Part shown: piece after piece, positions 32,601-46,556 of the stretch
How the letters are laid out: every line of letters starts with the position of its first letter
How positions within the stretch are numbered: the stretch's first letter is position 1
Source of the DNA: an uncultured Pirellulales bacterium
Lineage (GTDB): Bacteria > Planctomycetota > Phycisphaerae > Sedimentisphaerales > SM23-30
DNA length: 64,000 nt
NCBI GenBank assembly: GCA_964482555.1
Contig: CAYZXY010000013.1
Location: 1,225-65,224, forward strand
Direction of reading: 5' to 3'
Made by a program: the position numbers and the translations under genes
Notes under the pieces: generated by a model
Databases searched by the model: none
Seen by the model: the letters and a program-made list of their open reading frames with translations, nothing else
Told to the model about the DNA's origin: nothing

Positions 32601-33692
32601 ATGCGAAATTTCGACAAAATTAAACGAATCGTCATCAAGGTCGGCACCAATGTCCTCAGCAGGAACACGGGTGTCGATACCGATTTCATCGGTGTGATTG
32701 CCAGCCAGATTGCCGGGCTGGTCCAGGAGGGCAGGCAGGTCATCCTCGTTACCAGCGGCGCCGTTGGTATGGGCGCCGGGGCCCTGGGTCTGAAAAAGCA
32801 GCTTACCGAGATCAAAATGCGACAGGCATGCGCCGCCGTGGGCCAGGGGATTCTGATGCGGGAATACCAGGACGCCTTCAAACAATACGGCCAGACCGTT
32901 GCCCAGGTCCTGCTTACCAACCGTATCATGAGCTACCGAAAAAACTACGTCAACCTCAAAAATGCCGTCGAAACCCTCCTCAAGCTCAACGTTGTCCCCA
33001 TCGTCAACGAAAACGATTGCGTCTCCATCGAAGAAATCGACCTGGCCTTCGGCGACAATGACCGTCTCTCTGCCCTGGTCGCCTCAAAAATTGACGCCGA
33101 ACTGCTGATCGTCCTGACCGACGTCGCCGGTCTCTACAACGGCAATCCTCGCGAAAATCCCGATGCCAGGCTGCTTTCCGTCGTGCATGAAATTACGCCG
33201 GAGATTGAGGTCATGGCAGGTAAGCCCGGCTCGAAATACAGTACCGGCGGTATGGCCGCCAAGCTCAAGGCGATCCAGATCGCCGCCAACTCCGGCTGCC
33301 GGGTGGTTCTCGCTGACGGTCGTCGCAAGAATATCATTAATGACATCGTCGCCGGCGAAGACATCGGCACGCTTTTTCTGCCCAAACGCCGTCTCAGCAA
33401 CCGTAAACGCTGGATACTCAACAGCCTGCCGCAGGGCCGACTCGAAATCGACCCCGGCGCCGTGAACGCGCTGCTCAACAAAAAATCCCTCCTTCAGGTC
33501 GGCATCACCGACGTCATAGGCGACTTCCGACCCGGCGACGTCATCGAAATCGGTACCGTTGCCAAAGGCGTCACCCGGCTCGCCGCCCGCGACATCCGCC
33601 GCTTCCTCGACGACAAACTGAACAACAGCCACACCCCCGAAGCCAAACGCCAGGTCGCCGTCCATATCGACCACATCGTTCTGTATGTTTAA
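32601..33692 (+). CDS. proB: glutamate 5-kinase with PUA domain
   Basis: VIKVGTNVLS N-terminus, amino-acid kinase fold motifs, and a C-terminal PUA region (GDVIEI). Confidence 0.9.
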   Translation: MRNFDKIKRIVIKVGTNVLSRNTGVDTDFIGVIASQIAGLVQEGRQVILVTSGAVGMGAGALGLKKQLTEIKMRQACAAVGQGILMREYQDAFKQYGQTVAQVLLTNRIMSYRKNYVNLKNAVETLLKLNVVPIVNENDCVSIEEIDLAFGDNDRLSALVASKIDAELLIVLTDVAGLYNGNPRENPDARLLSVVHEITPEIEVMAGKPGSKYSTGGMAAKLKAIQIAANSGCRVVLADGRRKNIINDIVAGEDIGTLFLPKRRLSNRKRWILNSLPQGRLEIDPGAVNALLNKKSLLQVGITDVIGDFRPGDVIEIGTVAKGVTRLAARDIRRFLDDKLNNSHTPEAKRQVAVHIDHIVLYV

Positions 33693-35425
33693 CCCGCTAC
33701 CACATTTTCCACCGGCTGATTGTACAAAAACCGATGCTTGAATTGCTCGTTTCGCCCTTGGTTCGCCTTTTTGATCACCTCATCTCGCTCCGTCAATTCC
33801 CCATGGGCATACTGCTTCACTGACACCGGTCCCAGTCGTCCGCTCTTCCGTTTGGACGTGTACTCGATATTCAACGCCTCCAGCCGTCGGTCAATCTCGC
33901 CCGCCAACACCTCCAAACGCTCTGTCGGCCGCAATTTACGCAACTGCACCGCCACCCCGTACCTGGGCGGATCGCCCCATTCCGGCATCATGATAAACGT
34001 CTCCACCTCCATCCCGCACTCGTCGGCCGCCTCCCGTACCGCCCGCACCGCCTGATGTTCCGTCAGCTTTTCTCCCGTAATACTGCTTGTATGTGCTCCC
34101 TTTGACAAAAACTCAATCACCGGCGTCGTCCCCGCAAATCCGTTTACCCGCACGACATCGCCGATATGATACCGATACAACCCCGACTGATTGGTCAAAA
34201 TCAGATAATAATTCGCTCCCGGTTCCACCTCATCCGGCCGCAGTGTCACCAGCCCCTCCGGCAGCGTCATCAAATGACCGGATAGGTCCACACCCTCGAC
34301 CTCCGCTTCCGGTATGAACTCATACACATTCGCTTCGATGTCCAGAATCCCGCCGGGCGTGTTATCTTCCAGTGGAATCGACATACGCCCTTCGCTGGCC
34401 AGCAAACCAATATCCCGAATCGGCACATTGCCAAAGTAATCCCGCAATTGCGGCAGATACATCGACAGCGTACCGCCCGTCCAGTTCGCCAGAAATGAAA
34501 TATTCCAGTAGTGACGGGGCAGCAAACGTCCGTACTTCTCTAATATGCATTCAAGTTCCATTGCCCGTTGGGGCCGAGGATTCAGCCGGGATGAAAGCCC
34601 GCGTCGTATCCATTCCGGCACATTCTTTTCCACCCTCAGCGTGCCGTCGTGAATATCCCGTATTATCCGCATTGCTTCCTTTTCGGCCGTCTGGGCCAGC
34701 GTCAAAGTTGTACTGGGGTTTGCTGTGCTGATAAACGCAATGTCCTCACACAATGCCAGCCGCATAATCGTATAATACCGGTCCCCGGCTTCGGGAATAT
34801 ATGCCACCATGTTTGGCAACGCATAAAACTGCCGGACGACGGGTTTTTGATTCTTCGCCAACAATCCCGAAATCGCCCCACACGCAATCCCCGCCGCCGT
34901 CTTTTCCTGTTCATGCGGACTGGCAACCTGCAGAATTTTTCGGAACAGGGCGTCCGGGTGGTCCTGATAAGCCTGAATCCCCCAGATGTTCCATCCCCGT
35001 CGATAGCTTTGGGCAAACGCTTGTGTCACCGGGATATATTTAGCTTGCGATGTTGTGCCGCTGGTCAGAGCGAACATCAGCAATTTCTGGTCGGTTCCCA
35101 GCAATGCGTTTGGCCGGCCGTTTTTACAGTCGTTGATGTATGAGCCGTAATAGTCATACTGGGTCAACGGAAGTTGCCGGCGAAAATCATCATACGAAAC
35201 AATTCCCGCAAAACCGTGTCGGCGTCCAAAATCACTGTCCCGATGCGCCGCAATAATCCGGCACAGCAGTTCATTCTGGCCTGGGCGGCATTGGTGAAGT
35301 TTTTTCTGAAAGCGAGCGAGTTGCTTCCGGGCGTTGTGTGCGGCGATATGGCCGATGAGCCGCACCGCCGGTTTGAGCCATTTGCTGCTGGACCACTTGC
35401 TTGTCTTCATAATATGATACGCCAT
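33689..35425 (-). CDS. GH3 (auxin-responsive GH3-like) family adenylating acyl-acid amido synthetase
   Basis: 578 aa. LTSGTTSQAKYIP (acyl-adenylate motif) and YRYHIGDVV fit the GH3/ANL-like pattern from recall. The stop overlaps the convergent proB stop. Confidence 0.7.
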   Translation of the reverse strand: MAYHIMKTSKWSSSKWLKPAVRLIGHIAAHNARKQLARFQKKLHQCRPGQNELLCRIIAAHRDSDFGRRHGFAGIVSYDDFRRQLPLTQYDYYGSYINDCKNGRPNALLGTDQKLLMFALTSGTTSQAKYIPVTQAFAQSYRRGWNIWGIQAYQDHPDALFRKILQVASPHEQEKTAAGIACGAISGLLAKNQKPVVRQFYALPNMVAYIPEAGDRYYTIMRLALCEDIAFISTANPSTTLTLAQTAEKEAMRIIRDIHDGTLRVEKNVPEWIRRGLSSRLNPRPQRAMELECILEKYGRLLPRHYWNISFLANWTGGTLSMYLPQLRDYFGNVPIRDIGLLASEGRMSIPLEDNTPGGILDIEANVYEFIPEAEVEGVDLSGHLMTLPEGLVTLRPDEVEPGANYYLILTNQSGLYRYHIGDVVRVNGFAGTTPVIEFLSKGAHTSSITGEKLTEHQAVRAVREAADECGMEVETFIMMPEWGDPPRYGVAVQLRKLRPTERLEVLAGEIDRRLEALNIEYTSKRKSGRLGPVSVKQYAHGELTERDEVIKKANQGRNEQFKHRFLYNQPVENVVAG

Positions 35426-36542
35426 TCTCCTCGTTCGTCAGATTATCGCTGCCTTCCATCCCCGCAAACAACGCCAATGCCTTTCCATACAACAGTTTAT
35501 CAACAGCAGTTTTCCGGTGGATAAACTTATCGAAAAATGCCACCGATCGCAATGCATACAAATCGCGATGCACCAGCGTCGATTGATTGTGTTTGGCCTC
35601 CGGTGCCATCCAGAGATACCGCGGCGGCCGCGCCGCCTCATACAGCAGTTTCGCCTGATCCGGCCGGATATACGAATCCCGCGCGCCGTGGATAAAAAAT
35701 GTCGGCGTATCTTTCAGCTTCATAAGTGCTTTACGCGCCGAAAGAAACCGGCAATGAAACCGCCGCCACGCGACCTGCAACAGCAGCCACCGCAAAAACC
35801 GCCAGAACACCGGCGGATGATTTTCATACACAAATCGCACCCTCGCGAAGATATGCACCCACCGTTTCATAAACATTTCCAGCGTCGTATCATTGGAAAA
35901 CGCGCTGTCCGCCAGCACCGCCTTTACCAGTCCCGCTGAAAAGGGGCTGTCCGCCGCCAGAATTGCTGCACCCGCCCCCCGCGAAATCCCGAACATCCCG
36001 ATCTGAACGTCTAGTTCCCGCTCCCGAAACTGATCGTTCACATATGCCAGCGCCCCCAGGCAATCCGCCACCTCATGATTCGTGCACCACAAGCGCGGAG
36101 CATAATCCGGCAGCGATTCGCTTTTACCATGGGAGCGAAAATCGAAGGCAAAAATATCGTACCCCGCTCTCAGCAGCGGCATGCAATACCGCGACCAACT
36201 GTACATGTCGGCGTTGTACTCGTGACAAAAGATAATGACGCCTTTGGAATCCCCCTTCAGTATCGGTGCGTTGTTATCGAAATACAGCACATCACCTTGA
36301 TCCTTGATCATTGCCGGCGACAGAAACATTCCTCGCAGCCGCGTCCCGTCAAACGCCCGGAACTGGACTATATGGCCTTCCAGTTTCTGCTGATGTCGCA
36401 ACCCCAGAAAAGGCGGCGTATCCCGAAAAATATTCAGCATCAAACGGACATATTTCGCCAGAACCGCAACGATCCATAAGACCGTCAATACCGCCGCCAG
36501 GCCGCACAGCACAGGCCAGTAATGGAGCAATAACTGGATCAT
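35271..36542 (-). CDS. membrane-anchored alpha/beta hydrolase
   Basis: N-terminal TM helix. Nucleophile elbow GISRG. Starts 21 nt after the KS stop. Its 3' 155 nt overlap the GH3 start. Confidence 0.75.
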   Translation of the reverse strand: MIQLLLHYWPVLCGLAAVLTVLWIVAVLAKYVRLMLNIFRDTPPFLGLRHQQKLEGHIVQFRAFDGTRLRGMFLSPAMIKDQGDVLYFDNNAPILKGDSKGVIIFCHEYNADMYSWSRYCMPLLRAGYDIFAFDFRSHGKSESLPDYAPRLWCTNHEVADCLGALAYVNDQFRERELDVQIGMFGISRGAGAAILAADSPFSAGLVKAVLADSAFSNDTTLEMFMKRWVHIFARVRFVYENHPPVFWRFLRWLLLQVAWRRFHCRFLSARKALMKLKDTPTFFIHGARDSYIRPDQAKLLYEAARPPRYLWMAPEAKHNQSTLVHRDLYALRSVAFFDKFIHRKTAVDKLLYGKALALFAGMEGSDNLTNEENGVSYYEDKQVVQQQMAQTGGAAHRPYRRTQRPEATRSLSEKTSPMPPRPE

Positions 36543-36563
36543 TCCAGAATATCTCCGTCAGGG

Positions 36564-37892
36564 TTAATGTTGTTCAGGTAATTGACGTATGATGATTGTA
36601 TTATTCTGACCGCCAAAGCCAAACGAATTCGACATCACCGTTTTCAACAGCGCCGGGCGCGGTTCATTGGGTACATAGTCCAGATCGCATACTTCATCCG
36701 GCTGATGCAGATTGATAGTGGGTGGAATAACCTGATCTCGCAACGCCAGAACGCATGTTATCAGCTCGACCACGCCCGCCGCCGCGATCAGATGCCCCAG
36801 CATGCTCTTAACGCTGCTCACGGGAATATTATACGCCTGCTCGCCGAAAACGTCTTTAATCACCTTTGTCTCTATCGAATCGTTCTCCGCTGTTCCGGTT
36901 CCGTGAGCGCTGATATAATCGATATCCGTAATATCCAGACCCGCGTCCGCCAGTGCCTGCCGAACAGCTGCGATACCGCCGCGCCCCTCAATATGTTGAT
37001 CGGTTACCCGAAAAGCGTCGGCGGTACTGCCGTATCCGATCACCTCTGCCAGAATCGGCGCTCCCCGCTTCCGGGCCGTTTCGTAATCCTCCAGTATGAT
37101 AGCCCCGGCGCCCTCCGCCAGCACGAATCCATCCCGCGTCCGGTCAAACGGCCGCGATGACGTTTTGTAGTCGTCATTACGGGTCGACAGGGCGGTCAAA
37201 CGGTTAAACCCCGTTACCCCCAGCGGATGGATCATCGAATGCGTCCCCCCCGTAATCATGATATCCGTGTCGCCGTAACGAATCTGCTCCGTCGCCTCCC
37301 CGATCGCCTGCGTACTCGCCGCACAGGCCGTCAGACAACTCATACAGGGCCCGCGCAACTGAAACAGACGCGCCAGATAGCCGCTGGGTATATTCGGTTC
37401 CTGCTCCAGTTCCCGCCGCATGTCCATCCCCGAAAACGCGGTAGTCGCCCATGCCCCCCAGTCCATCTCATTTTCATCCGTATTCCACCCATCTATTGCC
37501 GCCTGCGAAAACGCCTTAAAATCTAACGGACCCTCCCCGGCGCCAAGATAAACGCCCACCCGGTCGCTGCCGGGAATCCTATTGGTTTGAGTTGCAGACA
37601 TCGGCATGGGCAGTCCCGCCTGGCGCCATGCCTGCAATGCCGCTGTAATTATAAACCGCGAATTGCGACCCGCCTGGCGAACTTCATCATGCAGATTCTC
37701 CGGTACGTTTTCGAGATGATCGTAATCCGCCACCTGCGCTGAAAACTGCGATGGAAATGTCCTCGCGTCGAACAGCTTCGTTAAAGATACTCCGCTTTCA
37801 CCGCTCAGCAATTTCCGCCAAACCTCATCAATGTCTCTTCCCAGCGGTGTCACCGCACCCATTCCCGTTATCACAACACGTCGTTTATCCAT
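36564..37892 (-). CDS. beta-ketoacyl-ACP synthase (KAS I/II-type, intact Cys-His-His triad)
   Basis: CLTACAAS (Cys), SAHGTGT (His), KSMLGHLIAAAG (His). Confidence 0.9.
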   Translation of the reverse strand: MDKRRVVITGMGAVTPLGRDIDEVWRKLLSGESGVSLTKLFDARTFPSQFSAQVADYDHLENVPENLHDEVRQAGRNSRFIITAALQAWRQAGLPMPMSATQTNRIPGSDRVGVYLGAGEGPLDFKAFSQAAIDGWNTDENEMDWGAWATTAFSGMDMRRELEQEPNIPSGYLARLFQLRGPCMSCLTACAASTQAIGEATEQIRYGDTDIMITGGTHSMIHPLGVTGFNRLTALSTRNDDYKTSSRPFDRTRDGFVLAEGAGAIILEDYETARKRGAPILAEVIGYGSTADAFRVTDQHIEGRGGIAAVRQALADAGLDITDIDYISAHGTGTAENDSIETKVIKDVFGEQAYNIPVSSVKSMLGHLIAAAGVVELITCVLALRDQVIPPTINLHQPDEVCDLDYVPNEPRPALLKTVMSNSFGFGGQNNTIIIRQLPEQH

Positions 37893-37908
37893 AATAATCT
37901 CTATCCTT

Positions 37909-37999
37909 AACTTTCGTATTTTTTTGATAACGCTTCGGCGTTCCGCAGGGCCATTTAAGCCCGACAGTATTATTCATTTTCGGATAAGTGATCGAAAAT
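37909..37999 (+). repeat. family-3 repeat in the 5' leader of the KS gene
   Basis: AACTTTCGTATTTTTTTGATAACGCTTCGGCGTTCCGCAGGGCCATTTAAGCCCGACAGTATTATTCATTTTCGGATAAGTGATCGAAAAT aligns along its whole length with 40064-40155. Confidence 0.85.
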
Positions 38000-38025
38000 C
38001 GCACTCTATCGCTTGTTAACTGATT

Positions 38026-38129
38026 TACACACGTTGCGATTGAAAATACGCGTTTTTTCAGAAGTAATTGTGTGCGAATAAAAAGCTTACACCCGGCTCA
38101 GCCCGGAGCTCTCTACCCGGTTGGGTATA
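38026..38129 (+). repeat. family-1 interspersed repeat, forward on + strand (reverse-sense relative to the minus-strand operon); overlaps the 3' end of the KS-like gene
   Basis: TACACACGTTGCGATTGAAAATACGCG...GAGCTCTCTACCCGGTTGGGTATA. The terminal palindrome encodes VYPTG-stop of the CDS 38113-39441. Confidence 0.9.
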
Positions 38130-39441
38130 CTTTTTTCAATACCATTGCCGCTGTTTGACCGCCGAAGGTTGTACTGGTGCATAAGGCATAGTTTAAGGTC
38201 AGTCCTTCGCGATGTTCCCGGACGATATTCAGACCAGGTCCGTTTTCAGGATGGGGGCAGTTCAGGGTTGCCGGAATGACACCGTGTTTCAATGCCAGCG
38301 CCGCCGTGACCATATCGATCGCGCTCGAACCGGCGCCGCAATTACCGATCCGACTTTTGGTCGCACAAACCGGCAGTTTACTCGTATAATCGCCGAAAAC
38401 CGATTGGATTGCCGTCGCTTCGCTCCGATCGGCGCTCGGTATGCCTAACCCGTGCGGAATAAGCAGGTCGATATTGTCAGGATTGATTTCCGCAGAGGCC
38501 AGCGCCTTATGCATGGCCGTCGCGATACCCTTGCCGTCCGGTTCCGGAGACAAGAAATCCTTCCCAAAACAGCAGGATGCACCAAAACCGACCACTTCCG
38601 CGTAAATAGACGCCCCCCTTTTTGTCGCACGTTCGTATTCTTCCAGAATAAAAATTCCCGCTCCGTCGCCGGCAACCGTTCCATCCGCGTCCCGGTCGAA
38701 AGGTCGGCAGGCTTCTTTGGGGTGGTCGTTATACTTCGTACTGGCCTGCTTGTAGAAATATTGTCGCAGCAAATTCATCGGATTGACTTTATTTTCTCCG
38801 CCGCCCGCGACCATGATATCCGCCTTGCCGTGAGCGATGGTTTTGTAAGCCTCGCCGATTGCCAGCGTGCCTGAAACATCCGCGTTTGTTATGGAATTAC
38901 TCGGGCCTTGAAAATCATGAATAATCGTGATATGGCAACTGAGCATATTCGGCAGATATTTCAACAACCACAAGGGCGTCAAACTCTGCATTCCCTCGCG
39001 ACCCCAGTGTTCAAGACTGAATCGGTCCCCGTCTTTCGAAAGACTAAGAGCCGTTGCCAGTTCCGGCAGGTCGCAGCAGATCTGCCCCGCTCCGATATTG
39101 ACCCCGCAGCGGGTTGGTTCAATATCAATCTCGCCGTTCGTACTCGTTCCTTTTGTTCGAAGACCCGCATCCCGGATGGCGCCGTCCGCCGCTACCACCG
39201 ATAGGGCGATATCGTGCGACATCAGCTTTGTCATTTTTCGGTGTGTTTTAGGGACATAGGCAGACATTTTGAATTCCGGGGTCTCGCCGCCGATCCGGCT
39301 GGGGAAACCTGATGCGTCAAACCGTTTGATCGGCTCGATTCCGATTTGCCCGTTCAGCAGGGCCTGAAGATAGTCATCTTTTGTCAGACCCAGAGCGTTA
39401 ACGATGCCTGTTCCGGTTATTACTACTCGGCGTTCAGCCAT
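38113..39441 (-). CDS. ketosynthase-like protein lacking the catalytic Cys (chain-length-factor / KS-beta-like partner)
   Basis: Aligned by eye with the neighbouring KS. TACAAS becomes NADVSG (Cys to Asp). HGTGT becomes HGLGI (His kept). GHLIAAAG becomes GNCGAGSS (His to Asn). Confidence 0.8.
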   Translation of the reverse strand: MAERRVVITGTGIVNALGLTKDDYLQALLNGQIGIEPIKRFDASGFPSRIGGETPEFKMSAYVPKTHRKMTKLMSHDIALSVVAADGAIRDAGLRTKGTSTNGEIDIEPTRCGVNIGAGQICCDLPELATALSLSKDGDRFSLEHWGREGMQSLTPLWLLKYLPNMLSCHITIIHDFQGPSNSITNADVSGTLAIGEAYKTIAHGKADIMVAGGGENKVNPMNLLRQYFYKQASTKYNDHPKEACRPFDRDADGTVAGDGAGIFILEEYERATKRGASIYAEVVGFGASCCFGKDFLSPEPDGKGIATAMHKALASAEINPDNIDLLIPHGLGIPSADRSEATAIQSVFGDYTSKLPVCATKSRIGNCGAGSSAIDMVTAALALKHGVIPATLNCPHPENGPGLNIVREHREGLTLNYALCTSTTFGGQTAAMVLKKVYPTG

Positions 39442-39460
39442 AGGGCTTTCTCCTGGAATG

Positions 39461-39565
39461 TATCCTCGCTCTGAGTGATATTATCCGTTTTGTCAGAACG
39501 TAATTATGTGCGGATAAAAAACTTGCGCCCGGTCCTGCCGGGAGCTTTCTACCCGATGGGGTATA
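39461..39565 (+). repeat. family-1 interspersed repeat, forward on + strand; overlaps the 3' end of the dehydratase gene and lies 20 nt upstream of the KS-like start
   Basis: TATCCTCGCTCTGAGTGATATTATCCGTTTTGTCAGAACGTAATTATGTGCGGATAAAAAACTTGCGCCCGGTCCTGCCGGGAGCTTTCTACCCGATGGGGTATA. It encodes VYPIG-stop of the CDS 39549-40037. Confidence 0.9.
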
Positions 39566-40037
39566 CTTTGCCACCCGGAATATAACTTTTCAACAGCGTC
39601 ATAAAATTCGCATTAAACACGAAGTTTTCTTCCGGGAACTCCAGGCCCGCCATGTTCCGGTCGATATGACTGAACATCATGTTGATCTCCGCGATGAGTT
39701 TATCGCCGCAGCGTATCTCGCCGCTGATGGTTGCCGCTTCTTCGGCGATATTCTCAATGGTCGCTTCCAGGAAGAGTTGATCTCCCGGCCGAACAATATG
39801 ATGAAAAACGGCTTGGGCGATTTTGGCCAGAATGACCTTTTCCTTAAAGCCCCGGGCATGGCCGACCAGGATGCCGCCCGTCTGGGCCATAGCTTCAATC
39901 ATCAGCGAAGCGGGCATAATCGGGTACCCTGGAAAATGATCGTGCAGATGCTCTTCCGCCATGGTGACATTCTTGACGGAAACCGCTCGCTTGTCCGGTT
40001 CAAATTCTATAAATTTATCGATCCAAATCCACCGCAT
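39549..40037 (-). CDS. FabZ/FabA-like hotdog-fold beta-hydroxyacyl-ACP dehydratase
   Basis: HLHDHFPGYPIMPASLMIEAMAQTGG (catalytic His and Glu context). Confidence 0.85.
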   Translation of the reverse strand: MRWIWIDKFIEFEPDKRAVSVKNVTMAEEHLHDHFPGYPIMPASLMIEAMAQTGGILVGHARGFKEKVILAKIAQAVFHHIVRPGDQLFLEATIENIAEEAATISGEIRCGDKLIAEINMMFSHIDRNMAGLEFPEENFVFNANFMTLLKSYIPGGKVYPIG

Positions 40038-40063
40038 GAATTATGGTTACTCTCTACAAAGTT

Positions 40064-40155
40064 ACTTTCGCTTTTTTTGTGAGCGTTTTGCTGTTCCGCA
40101 GGGCCTTTTAAGCCCGATGATATTATTGATGACTTTCGAATAAGTGATCGAATAT
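40064..40155 (+). repeat. family-3 repeat in the 5' leader of the dehydratase gene
   Basis: TACTTTCGCTTTTTTTGTGAGCGTTTTGCTGTTCCGCAGGGCCTTTTAAGCCCGATGATATTATTGATGACTTTCGAATAAGTGATCGAATAT. Confidence 0.85.
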
Positions 40156-40254
40156 ATCAAACATATTTTATGTTGTTGATACAAAGGCCCTGTTAAGCCT
40201 TATTCAAAAATGGTATCACAGGAAAACGTGCGAAATCGCGCACCAGGATGCCGA

Positions 40255-40641
40255 CTAGATTTTATTTTCAATATATTTTACCACGGATTCCACCGTAAAT
40301 GAATCGCTGATCTTGTTGACATCCGGATCCTGTTCGAATGAACTGAAATCAACATGCGGCATGCTTTCCTTGAGCGTGGTCAGCCCGGCATCGGTCATAA
40401 TGCCGTCTTTGACATACTCATCATTCGACAAAATATTCTCCGCCGGAAACAACTCTTCCCGCGGAATTTTGATATCAAATGCTTTTTCCAGTCGAAATAC
40501 GATATCCAGAAAATCAATGCTTTCTGCGCCCAGGTCGCCCATCAGGGTCGCTTTGTTGGTGACTTCATCATCATCCACTCCCAAAGCATCGACCAGATTT
40601 TCCTGTACTTTGGCGAATATCTCTTCGCGGCTCATTGACAT
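40255..40641 (-). CDS. acyl carrier protein, unusually long (128 aa)
   Basis: Phosphopantetheine-site context DLGAESIDFLDIVFRLEKAF. An extension of about 50 aa follows helix III. Confidence 0.8.
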   Translation of the reverse strand: MSMSREEIFAKVQENLVDALGVDDDEVTNKATLMGDLGAESIDFLDIVFRLEKAFDIKIPREELFPAENILSNDEYVKDGIMTDAGLTTLKESMPHVDFSSFEQDPDVNKISDSFTVESVVKYIENKI

Positions 40642-40815
40642 AGTTCAGTAACCTCCACTTATATACCGTGTCATAATTAAATTGTAGCATGGGCATCTTG
40701 CCCGCGTTTATGGGACTGACGATTACGATGAATCGTCTCGATAACATTCGGACCTGGGCTGCGAACCCTTATTCTGACAAATCCGAACGCGGTTGTTTCT
40801 TCATGAAATTCGATT

Positions 40816-40920
40816 GATACGCGTTCCGATTGGTAATTCCCGTTTTGTCCAAGCGTAACTATGTGCGGACAAAGCCTTTACAACTGGCCCTGGCGGGAAT
40901 TCTCATACCCTTTGGGTATA
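40816..40920 (+). repeat. family-1 interspersed repeat, forward on + strand, same subfamily as 8890-8994
   Basis: GATACGCGTTCCGATTGGTAATTCCCGTTTTGTCCAAGCGTAACTATGTGCGGACAAAGCCTTTACAACTGGCCCTGGCGGGAATTCTCATACCCTTTGGGTATA. Confidence 0.9.
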
Positions 40921-40998
40921 GTCAATCGTGCGATTTTTCTGACTTCATTGATGTCATTTTGTCTCAAATAAAAACGAGGTTCCAGCTCCGTAGTACAA

Positions 40999-41466
40999 TT
41001 ACGCTCCCAGGAGTCTGGCACGCTGTCTCATCTCTTCAATCAACTGCCGGTCCATGCTCGCCATCTCCGCGTCCTCGTCAGCCAGATTGAAATGACTCAG
41101 TTTCAACCGGGCCGATACCATCGGCTGCTCGCCGACGAAGGCGTCGCCTTGAAAATCGCTTTCCTGGTCATCGATGGTTTTCGCCTGCAGGTCCAGCCGC
41201 AGAATATTTCCCGGCTTGACGAAACTTTTATATTTCACATTACGCGCTTCAGATAACACAATCATGCTGTGAGAAAAATCCTGGCTTACCCGGACCAGCA
41301 TCGCCGCGGCCTGCACCATCGCCTCGATCATCAAAACACCGGGCAAAACCGGAAACGAAGGAAAATGGTCCCCCAGATATTCTTCCGCCAGAGAGAGGGA
41401 TTTTATCGCCTGGATGCTCTTGCCGGGCTCCAGATTCGTTATTTTATCAATAAGAACAAACTTCAC
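40999..41466 (-). CDS. second FabZ-like hotdog-fold dehydratase
   Basis: YLGDHFPSFPVLPGVLMIEAMVQAAA. Confidence 0.85.
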   Translation of the reverse strand: MKFVLIDKITNLEPGKSIQAIKSLSLAEEYLGDHFPSFPVLPGVLMIEAMVQAAAMLVRVSQDFSHSMIVLSEARNVKYKSFVKPGNILRLDLQAKTIDDQESDFQGDAFVGEQPMVSARLKLSHFNLADEDAEMASMDRQLIEEMRQRARLLGA

Positions 41467-41563
41467 GTTCGCATCTTTCCTGAACTAATGAGTCAGTTGC
41501 TGTCAGTAACTCGTGCTATTGTAGTGGCCAGGGGATAGTTTTCCAGAGTTTTTTCCAGGAGAA

Positions 41564-42685
41564 TCAGCTTTTCATTTCCCCAGCCAGTTCGCAGAGCCGT
41601 TCGACTCCCATCTGGATCTTTTCGTTGCTGGTGGCATAGCTGATGCGGAAGTGGGTATTCCGTTCCGAAAACGCCGAGCCGGGCACGACGAGGACATCCT
41701 TCTTGACCGCCTCCATAATGAAATCGGACGCATGGCCATCAGGTGCCGGCACAAAGGCATAAAAAGCACCGTGAGGGCGTACCAGGTCGAAGGCGTCTTT
41801 CAGGCCATCATAGATCAAATCCCGCTTCTTGCGGTATTCATCAACGATAACGGTTAAATCGCTGTCCAAAACCTTTAAAATCGCTTTTTGGAACGGATGC
41901 GGCGCACAGACAAAGGTGTACTGCTGCAGCGAGGCCATGCGATCAAACAGCTCCTGATGAAACTCCGGGACCGCCAGATATCCCAGACGCCAGCCGGGAA
42001 TACCGTAGGCTTTGGAAAAGCCGCGCATAATCAGCGTGTTGTCATAATATTCTCCGATGCTTTTCACCGGTTCTTCATAACTGAAATCCATGTAAATTTC
42101 ATCGGAGATAACCAGCGGATTGGAGGGTTTAAGAACTTCCGCCAGTTTTTGCAGTCTGTCAGCGGGAATCACCTGGCCGGAGGGGTTTGATGGTGAATTC
42201 AGCAGAATAAGCTTGGTTTTATCGGTTATTTTTTCCGCGATCTTTTCCGGGTCAACCAGAAAATCCGGATACGTATCGACGTACACGCATTTCCCGCCCA
42301 GCAGATTTACAATATGCCGGTATATCACGAAATAAGGATCCGGGATAATGACCTCATCGCCGGGGTTGATCGTGGACATCAGAGTCAGTTGGATCGCACC
42401 GCTGACGCCGCAGGTAACAAGTATGTTCGGATTCTGCCAGTTGAGCTCCCGGGTGATTCGCTCTGCAATCGCCTCCTGAAGTTCCGGCAAACCCGTCGTC
42501 AGCGTATAAGTATGATGGCCATTATTGATGGCTTCTATGGCGGCATCCCGCAGAATTTCGGAAGGTCCAAAATCAGGTATACCGATACTGAAGTCGATCG
42601 GATCCTGCATTTTTTGTGCCAGTTGCCATACCTTACGAATACCGGAGGCATCAATTGATTTGACTCTTTCAGCGATTAAGTCCAT
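41564..42685 (-). CDS. class I/II pyridoxal-phosphate-dependent aminotransferase
   Basis: FSKAYGIPGWRLGY (PLP-lysine context). N-terminal region DFSIGIPDF is typical of AspC-like enzymes. Confidence 0.85.
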   Translation of the reverse strand: MDLIAERVKSIDASGIRKVWQLAQKMQDPIDFSIGIPDFGPSEILRDAAIEAINNGHHTYTLTTGLPELQEAIAERITRELNWQNPNILVTCGVSGAIQLTLMSTINPGDEVIIPDPYFVIYRHIVNLLGGKCVYVDTYPDFLVDPEKIAEKITDKTKLILLNSPSNPSGQVIPADRLQKLAEVLKPSNPLVISDEIYMDFSYEEPVKSIGEYYDNTLIMRGFSKAYGIPGWRLGYLAVPEFHQELFDRMASLQQYTFVCAPHPFQKAILKVLDSDLTVIVDEYRKKRDLIYDGLKDAFDLVRPHGAFYAFVPAPDGHASDFIMEAVKKDVLVVPGSAFSERNTHFRISYATSNEKIQMGVERLCELAGEMKS

Positions 42686-42700
42686 TTATTTCGCACCAGA

Positions 42701-42735
42701 ATTTTAAAAGCCGCTGTCCTCCGAGAGACAGCGGC
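42701..42735 (-). terminator. terminator-like hairpin between the small basic protein gene and the aminotransferase
   Basis: The minus strand reads GCCGCTGTC-tctcggag-GACAGCGGC followed by TTTTAAAA. Confidence 0.55.
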
Positions 42736-45233: not shown

Positions 45234-45318
45234 GGAGGAGTGGCCGAGTGGTTGAAGGCGGCGGTCTTGAAAACCGTTGTGCAGCAATGTACCGGGGGTT
45301 CGAATCCCTCCTCCTCCG
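45234..45318 (+). tRNA. tRNA-Ser (anticodon TGA), class II
   Basis: Acceptor GGAGGAG/CTCCTCC. Anticodon loop CTTGAAA. Long variable arm. T loop TTCGAAT. Confidence 0.9.
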
Positions 45319-45440: not shown

Positions 45441-46556
45441 ATGGCTGCCAGAAAATATTGCGGATATTTCACAGGACTGCTGTTGTTAACCATTTGTGTT
45501 TTTGCCTGTGGCGATTCAGGCCGGTTGGAAAAAATTATTCGGAATGAGGCCAATTACAAAGCTCTTCGCGGTTCCTATTCTGTTGCGGAGCATCTGGCCA
45601 ACTGGCGTGATGAAAGCCGTCAACGAGACATACCGGTCAAAATATATTATCCGAAAGCTCAGGAAGGGCGGTTTCCGGTTATCTGCTTCTCGCATGGCCT
45701 GGGCGGTTCCCGTGATGCGGGCGAATATCTGGGCCGGCATTGGGCCAGTCATGGTTATGTCTCGGTGCATGTGCAGCATATCGGCAGCGATGCCAGCGTT
45801 TGGGATGGAAAAAATCGCAAAGATATTATGCCAGCCATGCAGCGGGCGGCCAGTAATCCGGTCCACGCCATAAACCGGCCGCAAGATATTTCCTTTGTTG
45901 TCGATACCTTGAGCCGGCTTAACAACGACGAAAAATCGCTTTTTTACCATAGGCTCGATATGGAAAAACTGGGCATTTCCGGTCATTCGTTCGGTTCGCA
46001 CACGACGATGCTCATTGCCGGCCAGACTATGGGGCCTTTCCCCGCAACCGCGACGCAATACGCCGATTCCCGGTTTAAAGCCGCAATCCCCATGAGTTCA
46101 CCGGTCCCCAGACAAAAGCACCGTTTGCCGGAGGTTTATCGCCATATCAGCATTCCGTGTTTCCACATGACCGGTACACTCGATAACAGTTCCATAGGCA
46201 ATACACCAGCAGAAGAGCGGCGATTGCCATACGATAACACCGATCGACCGGATCAATACCTGCTTACCTTTAATGGCGGCGACCACATGGTCTTTTCCGG
46301 CCGGACTCGCCGCAATGTCACCCCCAACAGTCGTAAGGATCCCTTCTTTCATCATTTTATCAAGATGAGTTCTATTGCCTTCTGGGACGCTTATCTTAAA
46401 AAAGACGAACAGGCCCTGGCCTGGTTGACAGAAGGTCAGTTTGCCAGATTACTGGGTACGTATGGCGTGTTTGAGCAAAAAGCGGATAAAACGACCAAAC
46501 CAGTCAAAATGGCATCCGATACCGCCCCGCAAGCAACCGCTGCCGGGACACCATAA
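45441..46556 (+). CDS. secreted alpha/beta hydrolase (PAF-acetylhydrolase / dienelactone-hydrolase-like)
   Basis: Lipoprotein-like N-terminus. FSHGLGGSRD oxyanion region and the GHSFG nucleophile elbow. Confidence 0.7.
   Translation: MAARKYCGYFTGLLLLTICVFACGDSGRLEKIIRNEANYKALRGSYSVAEHLANWRDESRQRDIPVKIYYPKAQEGRFPVICFSHGLGGSRDAGEYLGRHWASHGYVSVHVQHIGSDASVWDGKNRKDIMPAMQRAASNPVHAINRPQDISFVVDTLSRLNNDEKSLFYHRLDMEKLGISGHSFGSHTTMLIAGQTMGPFPATATQYADSRFKAAIPMSSPVPRQKHRLPEVYRHISIPCFHMTGTLDNSSIGNTPAEERRLPYDNTDRPDQYLLTFNGGDHMVFSGRTRRNVTPNSRKDPFFHHFIKMSSIAFWDAYLKKDEQALAWLTEGQFARLLGTYGVFEQKADKTTKPVKMASDTAPQATAAGTP

Follow-up and report, generated by a model that had tools for sequence, protein, structure and literature searches.

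What does a planctomycete make with a block of eight co-directional, minus-strand genes that resembles fatty-acid or polyketide synthesis, and do the eight genes belong together? The block lies in a 64,000-nucleotide stretch of contig CAYZXY010000013.1 from an uncultured Pirellulales bacterium (GTDB lineage Phycisphaerae, Sedimentisphaerales), which we refer to as the window. An earlier note, made from the letters of this DNA, read the genes in transcription order as a class I aminotransferase (AT), a FabZ-like dehydratase (DH1), an acyl carrier protein (ACP), a second FabZ-like dehydratase (DH2), a ketosynthase-like protein without the catalytic Cys (KSx), a canonical ketosynthase (KS), a membrane-anchored alpha/beta hydrolase (ABH) and a GH3-family amide ligase (GH3). 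Our analysis shows that the block is modular, not one fixed unit, and we read it as a composite operon. It consists of a five-gene core, DH1-ACP-DH2-KSx-KS, and of AT, ABH and GH3, whose counts are consistent with an accessory set travelling with the core in some lineages. The core, which is found class-wide in Phycisphaerae, is the more novel element. As to the product, we favour, with slightly less than even confidence, a reading in which the core would make an acyl chain, ABH would free it and GH3 would link it to an amino acid through an amide bond.

Pfam and NCBIfam profile searches recovered all eight genes in the positions and on the strand first given for them, each with a strong family match (Table 1), and agree with the earlier note that this is not the housekeeping fab operon. 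Housekeeping fatty-acid synthesis (FAS) of type II was rejected as an identity for the core because KS, KSx, both dehydratases and the ACP all score under the equivalog cut-offs, because the ACP has 128 residues and an insertion instead of about 78 residues, and because the canonical copy is separate. In related loci, a canonical FabF (50% identity to E. coli FabF) is encoded in L010, L012 and L050, and in the last two of these the gene for a short ACP of the ordinary kind comes before it. These separate canonical acpP/fabF genes indicate that the five-gene core is a second system.

The conservation of the core was assessed in 80 Phycisphaerae genome loci anchored on KSx, selected from 582 matching stretches. 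Nearly all of those with enough sequence keep the order DH1-ACP-DH2-KSx-KS; they span Sedimentisphaerales, Phycisphaerales and Tepidisphaerales, at about 45-75% amino-acid identity to the window proteins. The ketosynthase with an inactive partner, the dedicated ACP and the paired hotdog dehydratases, to which the earlier note had drawn attention, are thus present and form a conserved unit. The serS gene lies directly after KS in 45 loci, with comEC, hflKC and a GNAT gene nearby, which places the core in a conserved housekeeping neighbourhood. At three loci from complete long-read genomes (L003, L004 and L005; 10001-12950), the KSx-KS pair stands alone at the sampled site, flanked by genes for a type III glutamine synthetase and for a GATase/peptidase C26, and DH1-ACP-DH2 was not found within 10 kb of it. 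In 24 Phycisphaerae loci, a membrane protein of about 322 aa that resembles ABC-2-type permeases is encoded some 3.6 kb upstream of KSx on the same strand, separated from the core by an opposite-strand GNAT gene; this arrangement does not occur in the window. A 3-kb insertion between ACP and DH2 in L017 and L046 proved to be an unrelated opposite-strand gene.

Judged by their sequences, KS and KSx are both FabF-derived. KS reaches 450.5 bits with the fabF model TIGR03150, under its cut-off of 493.75 bits, and KSx reaches 335 bits; the two share 40% and 36% identity, respectively, with E. coli FabF and 32% with each other. The best solved relatives of both are FabF proteins, at 341 bits for KS and 260 bits for KSx. 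The two synthase chains of structure 9S5H, which we take, from a preprint, to be the anammox amxFabF pair, score 260 and 200 bits with KS, and 195 and less than 138 bits with KSx. The act KS and the act chain-length factor (CLF) score 262.7 and less than 186 bits against KS, and 156 and 138 bits against KSx, and Iga11 scores 188 and 149 bits with KS and KSx, respectively.

The Cys/His/His/Lys set of KS is invariant in 77/77 family members. At the Cys position of KSx, Glu is found in 71 and Asp in 15 of 86 family members, so that the residue is always acidic; the first His is retained and the second is mostly Asn. In the window protein, these positions read ITNADVSG, with Asp for Cys, and KSRIGN, with Asn for the second His. 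A conserved substitution in a dead subunit whose gene always comes just before that of its live counterpart is the mark of an obligate heterodimer, and we infer that KS and KSx form a KS/CLF-like heterodimer in which KSx would be the non-catalytic partner. The likeness to the KS/CLF logic of type II polyketide synthases (PKS) and aryl-polyene (Ape) systems, to which the earlier note had pointed, therefore holds for the paired architecture but not for the proteins themselves, which are FabF-derived, with an acidic residue in KSx where a CLF would be expected to have Gln. This residue, and FabF scores that exceed those of act KS and CLF, led us to reject a type II PKS KS-alpha/KS-beta pair.

Ape and other highly reducing type II PKS systems (ApeO/ApeC, ApeI/ApeP, Iga11/Iga12) have in common with our cluster a KS/CLF-type pair, a hotdog dehydratase pair and discrete ACPs, and homologues of DH1 and DH2 bear a precomputed Pfam ApeI-like match. 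They differ in that the window has no ApeH-type adenylation/aryl starter enzyme and none of the glycosyltransferases or acyltransferases, and KS and KSx are nearer to FabF than to Iga11. Assignment to the Ape cluster was rejected, as the window has no ketoreductase (ApeQ), priming ketosynthase (ApeR) or LolA/MMPL export genes. More generally, no ketoreductase, enoyl reductase, malonyl/acyltransferase or exporter is encoded in the whole window, which bears out for the window what had been noted of the cluster.

The two dehydratases score 93-101 bits against equivalog cut-offs of 113 and 155 bits, DH1 reaching 98 bits with the NCBIfam FabZ model (cut-off 113 bits). The active site of FabZ is composite: one subunit contributes the His and its partner the Glu. 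The His of DH1 is invariant in 45 members, and its Glu is replaced by Gln in nine; the Glu of DH2 is invariant in 66 members, and its His is replaced by Asn or Leu in 12. Among loci from which both proteins were recovered, loss of the DH2 His is confined to those in which the DH1 Glu is Gln (4/4). Given the composite FabZ site, this complementary loss points to a DH1:DH2 heterodimer with one obligatory site. Both sites are intact in the window. The tunnel position is occupied by Ala in DH1 and by Gly in DH2, and the best solved relatives of DH2 are the anammox amxFabZ structures 8AYC and 7QV0 (74 bits).

No protein of the set is better conserved than the ACP (60-78% identity among relatives). 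When it is aligned with AcpP of E. coli and with a canonical ACP from Phycisphaerae, an insertion of about 45 aa shows up between the third and the final helix, and this insertion is conserved across about 50 sequences. A single-sequence AF2 model of the ACP (pLDDT 63) was too poor for use. At locus L148 (8287-12948), a group of genes immediately after a V-type ATPase operon encodes, in this order, an insertion-type ACP paralogue, a GH3 protein, Methyltransf_20, DUF1571 (MucB/RseB-like) and Hydrolase_4 proteins.

A comparable set is known from the same phylum. Cluster I of anammox bacteria (Planctomycetota, Brocadiia) contains amxACP, amxFabZ and amxFabFmut/amxFabF2; amxFabFmut, with its Cys changed to Val or Thr and both His lost, is encoded upstream of amxFabF2, and the amxFabZ tunnel has Ile (bioRxiv 10.64898/2026.05.19.726425; PMC10139942). 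The amxFabFmut/amxFabF2 pair is experimentally heterodimeric and has the same pseudo-KS-then-KS gene order as ours (bioRxiv 10.64898/2026.05.19.726425). Both clusters have a dedicated ACP, a FabZ-like dehydratase and a dead FabF just upstream of an active one, and neither has a ketoreductase, an enoyl reductase or a malonyl/acyltransferase. The window differs in having two dehydratases rather than one, the 45-aa ACP insertion and no radical S-adenosylmethionine (SAM)/phytoene-dehydrogenase gene, and the Phycisphaerae core is class-wide in non-ladderane bacteria. Membership in Cluster I was rejected on the acidic residue at the Cys position, the retained first His, the Ala and Gly at the tunnel position and the missing radical-SAM/phytoene-dehydrogenase gene. 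Orthology with the amxFabF pair is likewise unsupported by the relative bit scores, the 9S5H chains scoring below FabF.

A core of this content might instead be an anaerobic unsaturated-fatty-acid branch, analogous to FabA/FabB or to enterococcal FabN/FabO, in which one FabZ-like subunit would act as a dehydratase/isomerase, the FabF-like pair would elongate the cis-enoyl intermediate, and the accessory genes would have no part in it. Such a branch would fit the duplication of FabZ-like and FabF-like genes next to a canonical FAS, the anaerobe-type metabolism encoded in the window (RACo protein, ADP-forming acetyl-CoA synthetase) and a distribution of FabA and FabB that is for the most part limited to Proteobacteria. 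However, the known branches use the housekeeping ACP and have neither a dead KS partner nor an insertion-bearing dedicated ACP, and nothing in our data indicates isomerase activity. We consider this role highly improbable.

For the accessory genes, a second sample of 80 metagenome loci anchored on GH3 was added, and co-occurrence was counted over the 57 loci of the combined set that have a complete core and room on both sides. AT and ABH both lie beside the core in 9/57 loci, ABH without AT in 5/57, neither in 43/57 and AT without ABH in 0/57. AT is thus found upstream of DH1 in 9/14 loci with core and ABH and in 0/43 core-only loci (Fisher p = 2e-7, for loci that are related by descent). ABH is immediately upstream of GH3 in 33 GH3-anchored loci, about half of those with room, and the core directly precedes ABH in 16 of these 33. 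Where the core is followed by ABH, GH3 comes next in 14 of the 15 loci with room, and the core-ABH-GH3 order recurs even where GH3 is only about 40% and KSx 37-47% identical (L143, L146, L154, L158, L163 and L165). ABH-GH3 pairs without a core upstream were found at L118, L127, L130, L137, L140 and L142. Homologues of GH3, KSx and ABH all come from uncultured Phycisphaerae, mostly Sedimentisphaerales. When the earlier note's suggestion that the eight genes act as one unit was put to this co-conservation check, it survived for the five-gene core but not for the remainder, as most cores lack AT, ABH and GH3, and GH3 is often coreless.

The hydrolase had been described as membrane-anchored and as starting 21 nt after KS, and both details proved accurate: the AF2 model of the 423-aa protein (pLDDT 86) has an N-terminal transmembrane (TM) helix at residues 9-40 followed by a hydrolase fold, and the distance from the KS stop to the ABH start is exactly 21 nt. 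Residues S187, D289 and H318 are invariant in 63 homologues. The best Foldseek matches of the model are esterases and monoacylglycerol lipases, which do not separate a thioesterase from an acyltransferase, and we propose that ABH is either a membrane-anchored acyl-ACP thioesterase or a lipid O-acyltransferase.

The GH3 protein has the three domains of its family, PF03321 (211.6 bits), PF23571 (64.9 bits) and PF23572 (47.4 bits), all above 23.6 bits, together with the nucleotide-binding motifs. Residues T121, S122, T124, K129, S344, E345, Y419, G422 and D423 are invariant in 20 homologues, and the closest solved relative is JAR1. The open reading frames (ORFs) of ABH and GH3 share 155 nt in the window, and the matched regions overlap by about 25-120 nt in close relatives; the long GH3 start, which gives a 578-aa ORF, was adopted because the N-terminus is conserved in homologues. 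A public protein collection lists the window GH3 solely in a 492-aa form, whose later start leaves no overlap with ABH. A GH3 homologue (49% identity) in a complete Phycisphaerales genome (L001, 8498-11728; CP070685.1) stands alone, beside an EPSP synthase gene.

The best solved relatives of AT are the Pyrococcus aromatic aminotransferase 1DJU and aspartate aminotransferases, and the probable role of AT is to provide or recycle the amino acid (or 2-oxo acid) that serves as partner. Beyond what the earlier note described, close relatives have a ninth gene: a 347-aa SAM methyltransferase is encoded after GH3 in most of them (L002, 11814-12857, and 15 other loci), with no copy in the window or in L086. 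Among the NCBIfam models, it matches 2-ketoarginine methyltransferase best (118 bits over the full length, under cut-off), and in assessable loci it was found only where AT is present. An aminotransferase together with a 2-oxo-acid-type methyltransferase suggests that the amino acid is beta-methylated in these relatives.

A GH3 enzyme with a hydrolase partner has a precedent in the OlsH/OlsI(/OlsG) ornithine-lipid pathway of Singulisphaera acidiphila, where OlsH converts free fatty acid, ATP and ornithine into N-acyl ornithine, OlsI is the partner alpha/beta hydrolase, and a methyltransferase is encoded in the same operon (PMC12493201). Our locus is similar in that genes for a GH3 amide synthetase and an alpha/beta hydrolase are adjacent in a planctomycete operon, the predicted chemistry is the same, and window-type relatives too carry an operon methyltransferase. 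It differs in that ABH is larger (423 aa) and membrane-anchored and that the pair is joined to a FAS-like module and AT; the relatives' methyltransferase resembles 2-oxo-acid C-methyltransferases and has no match to any ornithine-lipid methyltransferase. By this analogy, GH3 most plausibly makes an amide-linked product, with an amine as the presumed acceptor. This part of the earlier suggestion gains from the OlsH precedent and from the way AT tracks ABH-GH3, while the product itself is a prediction. A GH3 gene also lies among KS, ACP and ketoreductase genes in the legionellol cluster of Legionella pneumophila (lpg2225-2234), which makes an amino-acid-derived lipid surfactant, and knocking out that GH3 gene left the product unchanged (PMC5640695). 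The legionellol cluster differs from ours in its KS III-type synthases and CoA ligases, and its gene families are otherwise unrelated.

In the reading that we favour, the active KS and the dead KSx would together extend a chain on the dedicated, insertion-bearing ACP, and a FabZ-type DH1:DH2 heterodimer would dehydrate it, while malonyl loading, keto-reduction and any enoyl-reduction would be borrowed from the housekeeping FabD, FabG and FabI. The membrane-anchored ABH would take the acyl chain off the ACP, and GH3 would adenylate the free acid and amide-link it to an amino acid supplied by AT. In relatives, transamination, methylation of the 2-oxo acid and re-transamination would yield a beta-methylated amino acid. 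As the product we predict a lipoamino acid, an N-acyl amino acid with a pathway-specific chain, that would act as a membrane lipid or surfactant.

A number of observations weigh against this proposal. The loci behind the co-occurrence counts are not independent of one another phylogenetically, and GH3 itself served as the anchor for the second set. AT, ABH and GH3 are all missing beside 43/57 cores, and since most Phycisphaerae cores stand without them, the primary role of the core need not involve an amide. GH3 is alone in about half of the assessable GH3-anchored loci, AT is similar to ordinary aspartate/aromatic aminotransferases, and its spacing from DH1 is 97 nt. ABH has no match to the OlsI O-acyltransferase model NF052614 (cut-off 385 bits) even at E <= 10, in a library that did contain this model, which gave a weak match to another hydrolase there; GH3 reaches 101 bits, in two stretches, against the cut-off of 620 bits of NF052613, the model of the lyso-ornithine lipid synthetase OlsH. 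The parallel with OlsH/OlsI is thus one of logic, not of orthology. Additionally, the ACP paralogue of L148 (55% identity) lies directly before GH3 with no KS or DH present, and the GH3 gene of L001 is divergent from a gene for a DltB-like MBOAT O-acyltransferase (154 bits to TIGR04091, under cut-off). Both loci hint that GH3 may work with a carrier protein instead, at L148 through a direct link.

The many cores without any of the three accessory genes, the ABH-GH3 pairs without a core, the solitary GH3 genes and the general character of AT would all be expected if the genes were adjacent by coincidence. The core would then make a class-specific fatty acid, of special length or unsaturated, for the membrane or lipid A, like the AcpXL cluster, with ABH-GH3 as an independent OlsHI-like aminolipid module acting on bulk fatty acids and AT as a housekeeping enzyme. 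The order ACP-DH-KS-KS is also that of acpXL-fabZXL-fabF2XL-fabF1XL (PMC11901934). However, a core-ABH-GH3 order still seen at about 40% GH3 identity outlasts the usual neutral synteny, the short gap between KS and ABH points to more than chance, and AT is never found beside an ABH-less core. Coincidence is, in our judgement, an unlikely explanation.

The full rhizobial very-long-chain cluster reads acpXL-fabZXL-fabF2XL-fabF1XL-adhA2XL-lpxXL (PMC11901934). Compared by gene content and order, it resembles ours in its dedicated ACP, FabZ and two FabF paralogues, in the use of housekeeping reductases and in handing a special chain to a dedicated transferase, the last two being proposals on the side of the window. 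Ours has no alcohol dehydrogenase and no LpxXL, has a second dehydratase, and would hand the chain to a hydrolase and GH3. Membership in the AcpXL cluster was rejected, as the ACP reaches 43.7 bits against 83 for NF005079 and neither the alcohol dehydrogenase nor LpxXL is encoded. We take NF005079, NF006587 and NF006618 to be the models assigned to the XL proteins.

The arrangements at L148 and L001 bear more directly on the main rival to our proposal, in which GH3 would act at the start of synthesis rather than at its end. It would load a starter acid, a 2-oxo acid or amino acid readied by AT (and by the methyltransferase in relatives), onto the ACP; KS:KSx and DH1:DH2 would extend it, and ABH would off-load the chain, much as DltA loads DltC or AmcH loads AmcB in the cispentacin pathway. 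An insertion-type ACP placed immediately before GH3 in a locus without a KS, a GH3 gene that adjoins a DltB-like one and the lack of a FabH-type priming KS in the cluster would all suit such a route. There are also weak, sub-cut-off matches of DH, KS and ACP to the cispentacin proteins AmcE (54-57 vs 140 bits), AmcF (217.6 vs 325 bits) and AmcB (22.5 vs 80 bits), and an aminotransferase is reportedly part of the cispentacin logic as well. These matches are explained by general FabF/FabZ similarity, and the Amc pathway was rejected as an identity for the cluster. The GH3 enzymes characterised so far, from plants and bacteria alike, all have an amine as their acceptor. OlsH works without ACP or CoA (PMC12493201), and the ACP insertion is conserved also in genomes whose core has no adjacent GH3. 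We therefore hold priming by GH3 to be improbable, though it is the leading alternative, coincidental adjacency and the unsaturated-fatty-acid role being less likely.

Literature searches on this cluster, its core or Phycisphaerae aminolipids found no description, in keeping with the earlier note, which could not match the set to a described pathway. It is a tentative but reasonable possibility that the cluster represents a class-wide, vertically inherited and undescribed lipid machine of the Phycisphaerae that, in several lineages, leads to new N-acyl (in relatives, beta-methyl) amino-acid lipids. The anammox FabF heterodimer has been reported as the first CLF in a fatty-acid pathway, and its cluster has been treated as unique to ladderane producers (bioRxiv 10.64898/2026.05.19.726425). 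If our reading is right, the Planctomycetota would hold a second, independent system with a CLF in fatty-acid synthesis, beside that of anammox bacteria, and a new route to bacterial aminolipids. A parallel but separate set, common in the sister class Phycisphaerae, would mean that dead KS partners in FAS-like systems are more general and would give the ladderane enzymes something to be compared with. Bacterial GH3 enzymes are numerous, with OlsH alone having a proven function, and the GH3 described here offers a testable second case; tied to an acyl-chain factory and an aminotransferase, it may be a source of new lipoamino-acid surfactants. Furthermore, Phycisphaerae abound in anoxic sediments, and very little work has been done on their lipids; a class-specific lipid could serve as a biomarker.

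Table 1. Genes of the block, in transcription order, and the hairpin ahead of it (positions in the window)
Feature	Position	Strand	Family matches and motifs
AT, class I PLP aminotransferase (AspAT/aromatic-type)	41564-42685	-	Pfam Aminotran_1_2, E = 9e-63
DH1, FabZ-like hotdog dehydratase	40999-41466	-	Pfam FabA, E = 2.5e-18; catalytic His and Glu present
ACP, 128 aa	40255-40641	-	Pfam PP-binding; phosphopantetheine Ser within DLGAESID
DH2, FabZ-like dehydratase	39549-40037	-	Pfam FabA, E = 3e-17; His and Glu present
KSx, FabF-derived (by sequence) pseudo-ketosynthase	38113-39441	-	both KS Pfam domains; catalytic Cys to Asp, second His to Asn
KS, FabF-like beta-ketoacyl-ACP synthase	36564-37892	-	full Cys/His/His/Lys set
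ABH, alpha/beta-fold serine hydrolase	35271-36542	-	Pfam Abhydrolase_1 and Hydrolase_4; GISRG nucleophile motif; N-terminal TM helix
GH3, adenylating acyl-acid amido synthetase family	33689-35425	-	Pfam GH3, GH3_M and GH3_C above threshold
G+C-rich hairpin	42710-42735	.	9-bp stem, 7 G-C pairs; 25-50 nt upstream of AT start

The block is flanked by opposite-strand genes: proB, which is convergent and has a 4-nt overlap with the GH3 stop, and a pdxB-like gene, which is divergent. The earlier note had placed a terminator-like hairpin at 42701-42735; a hairpin is indeed present over a slightly shorter span but, since it lies in the divergent intergenic region, we interpret it as a 5'-leader hairpin of AT rather than as the terminator of an upstream co-directional gene. 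An Rfam search of the intergenic regions, including that of the hairpin, found nothing. Terminator-like matches in the region numbered 16 against 11.7+/-3.9 in shuffled sequence and promoter-like matches 16 against 10.7+/-3.5, neither being above chance. The gap between DH1 and ACP (40642-40998) measures 357 nt in the window, compared with about 30-220 nt in relatives, and holds no Rfam family and no convincing ORF.

Elsewhere in the window, a second, unrelated alpha/beta hydrolase (PAF-acetylhydrolase/PETase-like) is encoded at 45441-46556 on the opposite strand, 2.8 kb upstream of the cluster, and is followed by the gene for a RACo-type corrinoid activase. Two plus-strand tRNA genes (Rfam RF00005) lie at 898-980 and 45234-45318. 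With glycoside hydrolases in addition to the RACo protein and the ADP-forming acetyl-CoA synthetase, the remaining genes of the window fit an anaerobic polysaccharide degrader of the Sedimentisphaerales-type Phycisphaerae.

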